Assembly (NCBI GenBank): GCA_964589775.1
Contig: CAZPUN010000042.1
Location: 1 to 8,597 of the forward strand
DNA: 8,597 nt
Direction: 5' to 3'
DNA from: an uncultured archaeon
GTDB taxonomy: Archaea; Asgardarchaeota; Thorarchaeia; Thorarchaeales; CAZPUN01
Within the stretch, counting starts at the first letter, position 1. The number at the start of each line of letters is the position of its first letter. The notes beneath the pieces were generated by a model that saw only the letters and a list, made by a program, of their open reading frames with translations, had not been told where the DNA came from and did not search any database. Position numbers and translations under genes: made by a program. Below, one piece after another: positions 1 to 8,597 of the stretch.

Positions 1-198
1 AATCAGAACGATTATTTTCTCATTTAAATGAGTGCAATTTTCATCTTTACATACGTAATCTTTTACACGTTTTGCATCTTTTGAAATCTGCAAAATTAGA
101 TCACTAATTGTTGTGCCTTCTTTTAATTCGAGATCAATTTCTCGAGCTCCACCAAGAATTTGTCTAATTGCTCCAAAAGGCTTTACGATTACTTTCAT
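1..198 (-). CDS. moaD: MoaD/ThiS/SAMP-family ubiquitin-like sulfur carrier protein (3' end truncated by window edge)
   Basis: Manual translation from ATG at 198: MKVIVKPFGAIRQILGGAREIDLELKEGTTISDLILQISKDAKRVKDYVCKDENCTHLNEKIIVLI, open to base 1. Matches the beta-grasp MoaD pattern (MKVxVKxFxxxRxxxG...GxTIxDL...IIVLI[NG]). GAGG RBS just upstream and a tungstoenzyme gene nearby. The diagnostic C-terminal Gly-Gly lies outside the window. Confidence 0.85.
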   Translation of the reverse strand, partial: MKVIVKPFGAIRQILGGAREIDLELKEGTTISDLILQISKDAKRVKDYVCKDENCTHLNEKIIVLI

Positions 199-259: not shown

Positions 260-538
260 TTAATCTGCAAGATCGAGAATTCTTGCCGATAGTTCAGATA
301 ATTGACGCCCTATCTTTATAAGATCCTTCTTTGTTAACTTGCCATCCTTAAGATCCTTTTCAATACGGTTCATTATTTCACTTAGCGTTAATTCATCAAG
401 AAGTTTCTTAATGCCTACAGCGTCTACAACTCTTTTAATGCCTACAGCGTCTACAGTTTCCTTTACTCCCACATGGTCTATAATATATTCTATGAAATCC
501 TTACTATATTCATGTTTCACATCTTCTAAGACACTCAT
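260..538 (-). CDS. Putative nested in-frame small protein (92 aa, RpnS-like antitoxin candidate) from internal Met182
   Basis: Minus strand reads CCA CAA AAG GTG AAA AAT ATA ATG AGT. AAGGTGA (553-547) lies 8 nt before the in-frame ATG (538-536), at the nuclease/tail boundary. Confidence 0.5.
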   Translation of the reverse strand: MSVLEDVKHEYSKDFIEYIIDHVGVKETVDAVGIKRVVDAVGIKKLLDELTLSEIMNRIEKDLKDGKLTKKDLIKIGRQLSELSARILDLAD

Positions 539-1081
539 TATATTTTTCACCTTTTGTGGTTCGAAAATAATAAATCCTATAGCTAAATCTTCAATTATTA
601 TTGGATCTTTAATTATTTGAATGTTTTCAAGTATTTTTTTGCGCCCACGTTTTGAAAATACTAAATATAAATAATCATCTATGGTTTCCGGTTTAAATGT
701 ATTACTAACTTCTTCAAGGGAAATTATTTTTACGGGTACTTCAAAAAACTTGCACTCTTTATCTAGTTTTCCTTTTTTAATTTGTATAACAATCGGGATA
801 ACTTTCTTATATTCTTCAAAGTTTTTTAATCTCTGCCAAATATACAATGACCTATATGCTAATACCTGTGCCACCGCTGTTAGTGTTGCTTTCTCCTTGA
901 ATTCGATAATCAAGACATTTTTTTCGCCATCACATGTCTGGCCTTTAATTATCAGGTCAGCTTTAAGAAGTCCTTTAGCGAATTCAGTATTCTCATTTAT
1001 TATGTTTGACAATTTAAAAAGGCGTGTATTCCTAGTGAAAATACGTTTGAGATATCCATCGAACATAGACTGTGGCTCCAA
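260..1081 (-). CDS. Rpn/YhgA-like PD-(D/E)XK nuclease-domain protein with repetitive C-terminal tail
   Basis: N-terminal FDGYLKRIF resembles the Rpn DxxFKxxF motif. Catalytic layout KADLII...LIIEFK followed by the helix AVAQVLAY, then IWQR...KVIPIVI and KIISL as in Rpn-type proteins. Start is TTG 1081 (in-frame TGA immediately upstream) or ATG 1066. Family call is from motif recognition, not a search. Confidence 0.7.
   Translation of the reverse strand: MEPQSMFDGYLKRIFTRNTRLFKLSNIINENTEFAKGLLKADLIIKGQTCDGEKNVLIIEFKEKATLTAVAQVLAYRSLYIWQRLKNFEEYKKVIPIVIQIKKGKLDKECKFFEVPVKIISLEEVSNTFKPETIDDYLYLVFSKRGRKKILENIQIIKDPIIIEDLAIGFIIFEPQKVKNIMSVLEDVKHEYSKDFIEYIIDHVGVKETVDAVGIKRVVDAVGIKKLLDELTLSEIMNRIEKDLKDGKLTKKDLIKIGRQLSELSARILDLAD
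408..482. repeat. 27-bp-period coding tandem repeat (9-aa units)
   Basis: TTAATGCCTACAGCGTCTACA is identical at 408-428 and 435-455, with a degenerate third copy at 462-482. Encodes IDHVGVKET / VDAVGIKRV / VDAVGIKKL. Confidence 0.95.
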
Positions 1082-1093
1082 TCATTGTCATAG

Positions 1094-1136
1094 ATTTATA
1101 TAATGGTTTTCTTAATAAACTAAACCATAAATAAAT
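1094..1136. promoter_or_regulatory. Compact divergent promoter region with imperfect inverted repeat
   Basis: TTTATATA at 1095-1102 and minus-strand TTTATTAAG at 1119-1111. ATGGTTT (1103-1109) and AAACCAT (1122-1128) form an inverted repeat that extends imperfectly to ATTTAT/ATAAAT flanks. Confidence 0.45.
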
Positions 1137-1148
1137 GTGGTGAACCTC

Positions 1149-1646
1149 TTGGCTAGCAAAAGTAAAATTTTACCTATCGGATTGGCAATAATTCATAAAG
1201 CACATACGCCGGATTCGTATCTGTTCATTCGCCGGAAGAACGAACCCTACAAAGGATATTGGGGATTAGTTGGCGGTAAACTTGAGGAGCATGAGCATAT
1301 TCTCGATGGTATCTTACGAGAAGTATCCGAAGAAACAATGGTAGAGAACTTAAAAATGTTGGGTTTTGCCGGGATTGTTTCTGAACATCTTGTGAGTGGT
1401 AAGGATCTTTTAGTTAATTTTCTAATTTTTGTAGCTCATGTCGTAATTGATGGAGAAATCTCGTTTGATACACGCGAGGGCGAGCTGAGATGGTTTAGTC
1501 GGGATGAAATAAAAGCGCGAAAAGATGAGTTTATTCCAAGTGATTGGAATATGTTCTTTAAATTTAACCGCCCGATTGAGAATGCATATTTTGACGCATT
1601 AATTGAAAAACTCGGAGACAAGTATGTCCTTGAATATTTTGAATAG
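1149..1646 (+). CDS. Nudix (MutT-like) hydrolase
   Basis: RRKNEPYKGYWGLVGGKLEEHEHILDGILREVSEETMV contains the Nudix box GX5EX7REUXEEX(G>M)U, with EGELRWF downstream. The ORF is open from GTG 1137. TTG 1149 is preferred because GGTGA (1139-1143) precedes it. Confidence 0.92.
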   Translation: MASKSKILPIGLAIIHKAHTPDSYLFIRRKNEPYKGYWGLVGGKLEEHEHILDGILREVSEETMVENLKMLGFAGIVSEHLVSGKDLLVNFLIFVAHVVIDGEISFDTREGELRWFSRDEIKARKDEFIPSDWNMFFKFNRPIENAYFDALIEKLGDKYVLEYFE

Positions 1647-6279: not shown

Positions 6280-6330
6280 ATGGACGCACGTTTGAAATAT
6301 TTAATTAGATTAGGATGTAATACATTATGA
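6280..6330 (+). CDS. Possible 16-aa upstream peptide (MDARLKYLIRLGCNTL) overlapping the next start by ATGA
   Basis: ATG 6280 is preceded by AAGGGGA (6263-6269). The TGA at 6328-6330 overlaps ATG 6327-6329. Confidence 0.25.
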   Translation: MDARLKYLIRLGCNTL

Positions 6331-8597
6331 AAAAGAACCTCGTTACATTAGGGTTTTTAATATGGATAGTCAGTATTGGCTCTATGGCAGCTACTGTAAA
6401 TGCCGTGAGCATTCCTGAAAAATCCATATTTAATAATGAGGCATCTTTAGATTTACCTGATGATGATATTGACTTTGATGACATTGTCTTTATTGCGGAT
6501 CCCAATTATGACGATTTTCGACCCATAATTGAACGTCTGCGAGAAATTCTGACATATGTCTATGAAGAGCCAAGTATTGCATGGGTAAGTTCTTCAGATG
6601 AACTCGTAAACACAATAGATCGAAATGCTATGGCTGTTGTGTATTTCCTCAATACGTCTCTTGAAGGTGTACATGTAGGAAATGAAACAGTGTCTTGGGC
6701 TGATTTTTCCGAGGCACTGATACGAAGCGATTTGACATCTCACGTTCTGGGAATTGGTGACACTGTTAAGATCGATGAAGTTATCCAGAATGTTCCCTCA
6801 AACTTGTATTATGATGGCGGAGATGTCTTAGACATCGATTTAGCATTCTTTTACGATTTATGGACACTATCCGACTTAGTTGGCGCTAAAGCATCAATAG
6901 ATGAAGCATATAATAAATCGTCTATTGCAATGAAGCAGATTGCTCTGGAATTCTGGAGTGACAACTTTAACGCACTTACATCGCGTGCATTTGACCCAGT
7001 AAATCCAACTGGAGAACTTGATTATCAGAAAAGACTTGAACAAATCGACTATGTACGTCGTGAGAAATTCCCTGAAGTTTGTGAGAAGCAATATCCAACT
7101 GAAGTTATAGATGGTGTTGAAGTTCCTGTTGAACCAGCGATTGATTTGAAATCGTATGCTGATTTTGACAGTGCAACTGAGATTCTATTATCATTCTTAC
7201 CTGAGTCTTCTGGTCTTCAGGGACCAATGGGCAATATTGTTGATTTACTTTTGGAACTTTTAATAGATACTGGTTATGATGCATTATCCATACCAAAAGA
7301 TGTTGGAAATCAAATTATTACTGGCATCAAACAAGTTTATGAACTCATTGGTGTTTTTAAAGAAGATACGAGTTCTGGTTTAAAGGCACTACTTAGTACA
7401 GTTGCTAAGAACTTTCCGTTCCCTGAAGAATATAAGAAGTACTTTGATTTATTCACAGACGCTCTATTTTCGCTTCGTGGCGATTTTGATGATGTTATGG
7501 ATGTAATCCAAACAGCGATTAATACATTATGGCCATCATCTCTTCCAGAAAATATTAAGAACATAGTTCTGGAAATTATCAACATCACGCAGGGTGTAAA
7601 AGACACAATTAATAGTTATGATTCAGTGTATAAGGCATTGGCTGCATATCTCAGTAAGAATCTCACAAAAGAATTGATCTATGACTTTCTAAATGATACC
7701 TTAGGTGTAGATGCGGCAAAGATTGAGGAATATGTTCGAACCGGAAAAGCATATTTTGATATGATTGTTGATTTTGTTCTCAACTTCAATGCCACTGACC
7801 TTGCGTACAAAATCGGCACTGAGCTACTAAGCATGGCATATGATTATTTTGATTCCACAATTGGGAAACAAATTGGAGCCAAAATTTCAGCCATCGTGCG
7901 ATTTGCATTGGCAATAGCAGGAATCACTAAGGAAAAAATAATTGATACGATGGAAGACTTGATTGCACAATATATTCCAATTAATGAATTCAAAGACCAA
8001 GTAAATGGCATTCGAAAACTTGCAGAAAACATTTCAGATACATTCAAAGATTTCTATGATGGTGTAATTACAGATATTGATGTTGTATCATCAAAGCTTG
8101 ATGCTGCGATTCGCCAGGCAATAAGTACCATTACTTACGTCGGAATTGATGGAGACATGCAAGTTCTTGCTGTAAGCCAAGACTTGATAACTTCACTTGA
8201 AAAAGCAATATTGCTTGGTATTGCGGCATATAAAGGAAATGTTGATACAAGCAAGCTACCAAAATTAGGTCAGGATATTATTAAGCCCCTACTTGGCGAA
8301 TTTGGTTTAAACACTACCACTATTGATAGTATCACCGAAAAAGTATCGCTTGCCCTAAACTTTACTATGGGCATTTATGCCGAACTAAAGAATGCGGACC
8401 AGCTCAAACAATTCATAGCGGGCAGCAAATCTAATTTTAAGAGTTGGCTCGGTGATATCAAATCAATGATTCGCACAGTTCTTCAAGAATTCATACCAAG
8501 TGATAAATTCAGTGCGTATGAATCGCAAATCAATGAGTTTATCGATATTGTGCAAACATTGATCAATCTCTACAAAGATAATGCAGATAAAAGCATT
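6327..8597 (+). CDS. Large secreted/cell-surface protein of unknown function (>=757 aa, 3' truncated)
   Basis: Manual translation shows no stop from ATG 6327 to the window end. Sec signal peptide MKKNLVTLGFLIWIVSIGSMAATVNA (VNA cleavage site), acidic linker LPDDDIDFDD, an alpha/beta domain, then long amphipathic helical segments. Ten N-x-S/T sequons counted. Confidence 0.92.
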   Translation, partial: MKKNLVTLGFLIWIVSIGSMAATVNAVSIPEKSIFNNEASLDLPDDDIDFDDIVFIADPNYDDFRPIIERLREILTYVYEEPSIAWVSSSDELVNTIDRNAMAVVYFLNTSLEGVHVGNETVSWADFSEALIRSDLTSHVLGIGDTVKIDEVIQNVPSNLYYDGGDVLDIDLAFFYDLWTLSDLVGAKASIDEAYNKSSIAMKQIALEFWSDNFNALTSRAFDPVNPTGELDYQKRLEQIDYVRREKFPEVCEKQYPTEVIDGVEVPVEPAIDLKSYADFDSATEILLSFLPESSGLQGPMGNIVDLLLELLIDTGYDALSIPKDVGNQIITGIKQVYELIGVFKEDTSSGLKALLSTVAKNFPFPEEYKKYFDLFTDALFSLRGDFDDVMDVIQTAINTLWPSSLPENIKNIVLEIINITQGVKDTINSYDSVYKALAAYLSKNLTKELIYDFLNDTLGVDAAKIEEYVRTGKAYFDMIVDFVLNFNATDLAYKIGTELLSMAYDYFDSTIGKQIGAKISAIVRFALAIAGITKEKIIDTMEDLIAQYIPINEFKDQVNGIRKLAENISDTFKDFYDGVITDIDVVSSKLDAAIRQAISTITYVGIDGDMQVLAVSQDLITSLEKAILLGIAAYKGNVDTSKLPKLGQDIIKPLLGEFGLNTTTIDSITEKVSLALNFTMGIYAELKNADQLKQFIAGSKSNFKSWLGDIKSMIRTVLQEFIPSDKFSAYESQINEFIDIVQTLINLYKDNADKSI

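Follow-up and report, generated by a model that had tools for sequence, protein, structure and literature searches.

Does a single gene of an uncultured archaeon encode two proteins, a nuclease and, started from within the same reading frame, a smaller protein identical to the tail of that nuclease? Such genes-within-genes are known for the Rpn family in bacteria (PMC10400941). Here, the question is raised by a gene on the minus strand of contig CAZPUN010000042.1, which belongs to assembly GCA_964589775.1 of a Thorarchaeales archaeon. The window, by which we mean the whole stretch of 8,597 nucleotides analysed, is the entire contig (C42 of an assembly of 2.16 Mb and 35% G+C). The full-length, 268-residue product of the gene is called L. 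It consists of a predicted PD-(D/E)XK nuclease head, a helical linker and a repeat-containing tail, and the tail as a product of its own is called S. Judged from the ribosome-binding signal inside the gene and from its retention among homologs, the gene very probably makes a separate 92-residue S besides L. In addition, we consider it rather probable that this Asgard gene is distantly related to the gene-within-gene systems of the Rpn type in bacteria.

The two start sites are defined by the following features:

260..1066, minus strand: full-length gene (L form), 268 residues plus stop, start codon ATG 1066; placed by the list of open reading frames (ORFs), the database gene call and the family N-terminus
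1076..1079, minus strand: weak Shine-Dalgarno (SD) sequence of L, GGAG, with a 9-nt spacer before ATG 1066
547..552, minus strand: internal SD AGGTGA, contained in the codons AAG GTG A(AA), 8 nt before ATG 538
260..538, minus strand: candidate nested in-frame gene (S form), 92 residues plus stop, start codon ATG 538, product MSVLEDVK...

In the ORF list of the window, the ORF at 260-1081 (minus strand) is intact, and the database gene call comprises 268 residues. This gene call and the family consensus N-terminus MxxDxxFK place the start of L at ATG 1066, and TTG 1081 upstream of it is unlikely to serve as a start codon. An earlier, sequence-only reading of this DNA had begun the protein at TTG 1081 and numbered the internal methionine 182. 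Both are corrected here, and the methionine becomes residue 177 of 268. What was claimed for the internal start itself is borne out by reading the strand: the in-frame ATG occupies 538-536 and is preceded by AAGGTGA (553-547) and an A/T spacer of 8 nt (546-539). The 3' end of the 16S rRNA of this genome reads ...GGATCACCTCCT, and AGGTGA pairs with it perfectly over 6 nt, whereas the signal upstream of ATG 1066 is just GGAG at 9 nt. The internal SD is thus the stronger of the two, as had been proposed. It had also been remarked that AAG-GTG is a minority codon choice in an AT-rich gene, and the counts agree: gene G+C is 31.6%, GTG makes up 4 of 19 valine codons and AAG 13 of 36 lysine codons.

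Ten in-frame ATG, GTG or TTG codons occur in the gene, and ATG 538 is the only one with a 5-mer of GGAGGTGA placed 3-12 nt upstream. Genome-wide, 1.0% of late internal in-frame ATG, GTG and TTG codons are preceded by such a 5-mer. It is found 3-12 nt before an early start in 38% of the ORFs of at least 200 residues, where the spacing peaks at 5-8 nt.

Approximately 30 nt upstream of ATG 1066, the minus strand reads TATAAAT (window 1094-1100). If this is an archaeal TATA box, the L mRNA would have little or no leader, and GGAG would perhaps not be transcribed.

Conservation of SD and start codon at the domain boundary had been set beforehand as the key test of the sequence-only reading, and the homologs support it. 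In alignment A3, which holds 93 full-length family members, a single internal column is rich in methionine (36 Met, 22 Val, 17 Leu, 11 Ile). This column aligns with I176/M177 of the window protein and is preceded by the consensus E-V-K-E. To follow it in DNA, 55 Asgard sequences of less than 60% identity were aligned to the family hidden Markov model (HMM), in which state 205 is the start column. State 205 is start-capable in 33 of the 55 (ATG 19, TTG 9, GTG 5). Where it encodes leucine, the codon is TTG in 9 of 11 cases (background 17%, p 5e-6), and where it encodes valine, GTG is used in 5 of 8 (background 27%, p 0.036). The codons upstream are biased too: valine at codon -3 is written GTG in 21 of 26 sequences (background 27%, p 1e-8), glutamate at -4 is GAG in 24 of 31 (background 42%, p 6e-5) and lysine at -5 is AAG in 14 of 15 (background 35%, p 4e-6). 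Codons -2, -1, +1 and +2 of the 55 homologs show no G-ending bias. Read together, the preferred codons from -5 to -3 spell AAG GAG GTG, that is, an SD with a 6-nt spacer.

An SD 5-mer lies 3-12 nt upstream of state 205 in 19 of the 55 sequences, compared with 3.9% at other codons (p 1e-13). Synonymous resampling predicts 8.5 +/- 2.3 SD-bearing sequences instead of the 19 observed (p ~5e-4). Along the profile, the combination of SD and start codon has a single peak at state 205 (15 of 55, against no more than 3 anywhere else). Variants of the arrangement also occur: Planctomycetota members have GGAGG(T), a 6-nt spacer and then ATG three codons beyond the column, and one sub-clade has its Met nine residues later. 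Since silent sites should be saturated at such divergence, the pattern points to selection on the RNA, rather than to inheritance or amino acid constraint. From these codon statistics we conclude that, among the homologs, both an SD and a start codon are maintained at this position by selection.

The same statistics bear on the possibility that no separate S is made from this gene. Here, SD and ATG would be a relic of a fusion between nuclease and tail, or a chance match within E/K-V-K-x-M, and the tail would merely oligomerise. E-V-K-E-M is indeed conserved as protein, and its amino acids alone yield 15% SD-like 5-mers. Head-tail fusions and fissions clearly occur in the family, as described below, and the Met of the window is shifted by one residue in a protein that is a divergent member (92 bits, against 200-320 for others). 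However, synonymous codon usage differs strongly from background both at the start column and from -5 to -3, but not in the flanking codons. A relic would be expected to erode, whereas the window gene retains six perfectly matching nucleotides at a spacing that is common in this genome, where the chance of finding an SD at a given internal start codon is about 1%. We regard a relic or a chance match as an unlikely explanation.

The relative strength of the two signals also differs throughout the family. At the N-terminal start column (HMM state 8), an SD 5-mer is present in 3 of 33 sequences, and at the internal column in 15 of the 33 that are start-capable. Rare SDs for L and frequent SDs for S could mean low translation of L and high translation of S, or leaderless L mRNAs. 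The weak SD of L and the strong SD of S, seen here and family-wide, suggest that S would be made in excess over L.

What does the head of L do? Its features, and those of the linker that follows, are:

662..1066, minus strand: predicted PD-(D/E)XK nuclease domain, residues 1 to ~135; from the AlphaFold2 model and matches in the PDB
958-956, 904-902 and 898-896, minus strand: candidate catalytic residues D37, E55 and K57, respectively; from conservation in 93 homologs
539..661, minus strand: predicted helical linker, residues ~136-176; from the secondary structure of the model. The codons of its conserved motif form the internal SD

Among the 93 homologs of A3, E55 and K57 are invariant and D37 is conserved in at least 90%, and no columns of the alignment are more conserved than those of this triad. 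The D...ExK core that had been made out from the letters of the window is thereby substantiated. An AlphaFold2 model computed with the 93 sequences of A3 has a predicted local distance difference test score (pLDDT) of 88.7 and a predicted template-modelling score (pTM) of 0.78; it supersedes an earlier run on 8 sequences, in which the head had a pLDDT of 64. Compared with solved structures, residues 1 to ~135 of the model best match the C-domain of NucS/EndoMS (Z 9.6, root-mean-square deviation 2.4, 102 residues, 18% identity). Further matches are Can2, McrC, Card1, Cas4 and restriction enzymes, and the PD-(D/E)XK matches range from Z 9.6 to ~5. A search of solved structures by sequence profile gave nothing below E 0.2. 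The head is thus predicted to adopt the restriction-endonuclease-like fold that had been expected of it and, going by the model, is a PD-(D/E)XK DNA nuclease.

The sequence-only reading placed the internal start at the boundary between nuclease and repeats, and this needs qualification. The start does lie after the core, but the core ends at ~135, a linker of ~40 residues lies between, and the glycine of the first repeat follows 23-24 residues later. This spacing is typical, as the first repeat Gly is found 23 residues (interquartile range 22-23) past the start column across the family, and S has a median length of 94 residues. The tail itself is composed of:

396..476, minus strand: three 27-nt (9-residue) repeat units in register, HVGVKETVD / AVGIKRVVD / AVGIKKLLD
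263..395, minus strand: C-terminal helical tail past the repeats (…DGKLTKKDL…); from alignments, with helices at residues 228-267 modelled at pLDDT >90

The 9-residue repeat had been recognised from the sequence, and its three units stand in register. The youngest two (396-422 and 423-449) are 81% identical in DNA. According to the alignments, the part past the repeats is common to the 'EGKITKE' tail of the paralogs. Across the family, the number of repeats varies from 1 to 11, and paralogs with heads that are 87-94% identical differ in it (6 vs 4, 10 vs 5 and 8 vs 5). At several loci (among them L192, L194 and L019), the L gene is followed by an extra, stand-alone tail gene. The description of the tail as a variable modular unit is upheld by these repeat numbers and stand-alone copies: the tail is an independent, copy-number-variable module.

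Several loci have parted head from tail. In two other Asgard genomes, the head and tail ORFs are split exactly at the boundary, by a TAA at L154 (1471-2361) and by a frameshift at L167 (1525-2374), leaving a head of 193 residues in both. These splits could be natural two-gene versions or sequencing errors. Locus L220 (2179-2770 of JBQSIP010000013.1, GCA_054386855.1) retains scraps of a head in other frames and an intact tail of 89 residues (MTEVATL), which is an annotated gene and may be an orphan tail protein. In the genome of the window, the paralog on contig C54 (L005 1180-2277) carries a TGA in frame, two residues past the catalytic Lys of EYK, at a position where the C18 paralog has Trp. 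Its head is probably dead, as far as can be judged from this stop codon. The AGGAG, the 9-nt spacer and the ATG at the boundary are kept, and the tail is intact. A tail-only copy (MNNKSSPQLVSVNDNIRYAIEKIG...) begins 42 nt after the stop of this paralog and runs off the contig. Dead or lost heads with kept tails would fit the loss of a toxin and the retention of its antitoxin, as described for rpnS/rpnSs (PMC10400941).

The remaining paralogs of this genome lie at contig edges. The C18 paralog (L003 928-1782) ends its contig inside VIDAVGLEK repeats, and C59 (L002 1-285) starts inside the same repeats; the two probably join, and tandem 27-nt repeats appear to break the assembly. The C3 paralog ends at a contig edge in the same way.

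The decay of heads also informs a further explanation, in which two products are made and L either depends on S as a partner or is positively regulated by it. S would then be a subunit, comparable to Cas11d from cas10d, and the pair would act in repair, recombination or another DNA role. All evidence for the internal start fits this explanation equally well. The gene sits among housekeeping genes, and its best solved-structure match is a mismatch-repair nuclease, NucS/EndoMS (PDB 2vld, 5gke). Moreover, Zhong et al. cite Cas10d/Cas11d as a complementary gene-within-gene (PMC10400941). Genes of the Cas10d/Cas11d type share with the present gene an in-frame internal start and a small product whose sequence is that of the C-terminus of the large protein. 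However, their small product is a required subunit, whereas the decay patterns described above point to an inhibitor, and the proteins are unrelated. Broken or lost heads next to an intact or duplicated S are hard to reconcile with an S that needs L, and a multi-copy, patchy and repeat-hypervariable family is typical of conflict systems. The match to NucS is confined to the catalytic domain: only residues 126-230 of 2vld_B align, and the rest has no counterpart, so that the two-domain architecture of NucS is not found. Unlike L, NucS has no repeat tail, and Pfam and NCBIfam gave no NucS match for the window protein. A required subunit appears to us an unlikely role for S.

How widespread is the family? 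A profile built from the paralogs of the same genome (C18/C59, C3, C54) and homologs in some relatives was searched against 1.84 billion metagenome representatives and retrieved 951 proteins at E<=1e-3, 197 of them at E<=1e-10. A word-index homolog search matched the protein only with itself. Of 400 Asgard genomes sampled, 33 contain members, and the highest number of matches in one genome is nine. The distribution is patchy and multi-copy. Three of 301 Planctomycetota genomes contain members, too few for bacterial statistics. One Planctomycetota genome (G400, 10.4 Mb) has 18 family matches, several of which carry an internal TAA, and some of which stand in tandem on its contig C19. This arrangement resembles the rpn gene arrays described in bacteria. 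A degenerate DNA pattern for three repeats, scanned over genome contigs, returned 120 loci, but the pattern was too loose and nearly all were chance matches in GC-rich genomes; the only real loci among them are L081 (Planctomycetota) and L102 (Heimdallarchaeota). Pfam, NCBIfam and PADLOC assign no family to any of the 93 full-length members of A3, and contact with TIGR01784, the Rpn family model, is limited to the window protein. The family is real, large and unannotated.

A multi-copy, patchy family with several copies at contig ends could also consist of transposases or homing nucleases of a mobile element, with copies that arose by transposition. In line with this, TIGR01784 is named 'putative transposase'. 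Transposase is an old annotation of Rpn/YhgA-like genes. To our knowledge, no autonomous transposase of the PD-(D/E)XK type is known. Copies end up at contig ends because the tandem 27-nt repeats break assembly. The gene is flanked by neither terminal inverted repeats nor target duplications, only short, chance-level matches were found there, and a transposon identity was rejected on the lack of terminal repeats. The same interpretation was rejected for Rpn by Zhong et al. (PMC10400941). That the gene belongs to a mobile element seems to us very improbable.

We return to the relationship with Rpn (COG5464, TIGR01784, PF04754; PMC10400941). Both here and in Rpn, a single gene of ~270-300 residues encodes an N-terminal PD-(D/E)XK head with a D-x-x-F-K motif, and copies are multiple and patchily distributed without transposon ends. 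As in RpnL/RpnS, a small C-terminal product, here a putative one, is delimited by an SD and a start codon inside the reading frame. A variable number of short repeats follows soon past the internal start, and extra stand-alone copies of the small part lie downstream. In the ESM Atlas, the clusters nearest to the model of the window protein are mostly Rpn, DUF4351, Transposase_31, HTH_Rpn_C or DUF2887 (template-modelling score 0.53-0.60 over 180-208 residues); both sides of this comparison are predicted models, and two of the nine entries have neither name nor family. By these neighbours, the overall architecture is Rpn-like. DUF4351 (PF14261) comprises stand-alone small proteins of the RpnS type. 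The resemblance here is that small proteins equal to the tail occur as separate genes beside or apart from L, and that DUF4351-rich clusters are among the folds nearest to the whole model. However, the 92-residue part has no PF14261 match at E up to 1, and none of the 93 homologs matches PF14261. COG5464 itself has been noted in two archaeal phyla (PMC10400941).

The differences from Rpn are equally clear. Members of the window family have E-F/Y-K, a canonical ExK, at the position of E-H-Q in the four intact Rpn paralogs of E. coli K-12 that were compared. The repeats are 9 residues long instead of 4, and they begin ~23 residues past the internal Met instead of 8-20. The host is an Asgard archaeon. 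The window family also stays below the cut-offs of the Rpn sequence models: the window protein has no Pfam or PADLOC match, a TIGR01784 search of its genome and of 40 relatives gave no match, and hhalign of the family against RpnA alone gave nothing significant. We conclude that the family is Rpn-like in fold and architecture and lies outside the Rpn sequence family.

Based on these likenesses, the following model can be drawn. Translation from ATG 1066 would yield the 268-residue L with its nuclease head, helical linker, three-repeat tail and terminal helices. Ribosomes would also start at ATG 538, guided by AGGTGA, and produce the 92-residue S, which is identical to the tail of L. By analogy with RpnL/RpnS, L would be a toxic nuclease whose active form is an oligomer held together by its tail, and S would bind this tail and render L inactive. 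Matching repeat numbers would make each S specific for its own L among the paralogs, and virus infection would release L. A prediction of the complex of L and S gave an ipSAE of 0.47, compared with 0.00 for the best control. Three runs agreed in at least 93% of contacts, and the partner had a pLDDT of at least 77. This result is rated weak: 58 of 80 solved complexes and 2 of 110 mismatched pairs attained the mark, but at a score of 0.60 or below only 7 of the 80 and both mismatches did, so that a pass at such a score errs more often than not unless there was prior reason to expect the pairing. For the family as a whole, we see an even chance that it is an unannotated family spread across archaea and bacteria, common in Asgard archaea and distant to Rpn, in which a repeat-coded tail, produced from an internal start, controls the nuclease to which it belongs.

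A number of observations weigh against this model and against the Rpn kinship. Toxicity, inhibition and phage defence are taken over entirely by analogy from RpnL/RpnS, and the neighbours of the gene are housekeeping genes rather than a defence island. The match of the window protein to TIGR01784 is below threshold (E 0.0017, 18.3 bits against a cut-off of 52.1) and covers residues 24-99 only. The term 'Rpn-like nuclease', used in the sequence-only reading, can accordingly be retained for the fold and architecture, which are near Rpn clusters, but not in the sense of membership in the Rpn family proper. Compared by hhalign with the four E. coli Rpn paralogs, the family obtained a probability of 0.7%, although the Rpn alignment is shallow (Neff 1.9) and homology is not excluded. 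S, with ~92 residues, is predicted to form several short helices, whereas RpnA-S has a single long first helix (PMC10400941). At the internal start, the window Met is offset by one residue from state 205, ~40% of homologs have no start-capable codon at the exact column, and only 18 of 55, about one third, combine a start codon in the boundary window with a strict 5-mer SD.

Zhong et al. and the commentary by Koonin asked whether antitoxins made from inside toxin genes extend beyond Rpn (PMC10400941, PMC10400984). In the literature searched, we found no description of this family or of an archaeal internal start of this kind. If the proposed model is true, this would be the first case in archaea of a supported intragenic toxin-antitoxin or defence system. 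The intragenic-antitoxin principle would then be of greater age and wider distribution than the Rpn family proper, and would extend to archaea, in the lineage closest to eukaryotes. The 9-residue repeat, as opposed to the one of 4 residues, would offer a second, independent repeat 'code' for toxin-antitoxin specificity. In practical terms, the family provides a concrete rule for annotating nested genes, which are overlooked by present gene callers, and the codon-bias test can be reused to find other genes-within-genes without Ribo-seq.

Repeat modules of this kind are not confined to proteins of the size of L. P0054 (1365 residues) and P0063 (1064 residues) are very large proteins that contain the same 9-residue repeat module several times, and their lengths are unlike those of the nuclease family. 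The repeat tail may therefore serve as a portable interaction module.

The remainder of the window holds a NUDIX gene, an ORF of 625 residues and two ORFs of 349 and 467 residues that overlap by 8 nt, in addition to two ORFs that are open-ended. The NUDIX hydrolase gene (1137-1646, plus strand; Pfam E 7e-15) is divergent from the nuclease gene. Downstream of the nuclease gene, an open-ended ORF of 66 residues (1-198, minus strand) has a weak ThiS/MoaD-like match (E 0.09). At the other end of the window, an open-ended ORF of 757 residues (6327-8597, plus strand) encodes a hydrophobic N-terminal stretch that resembles a signal peptide or membrane anchor; the long body behind it is acidic and helix-rich.

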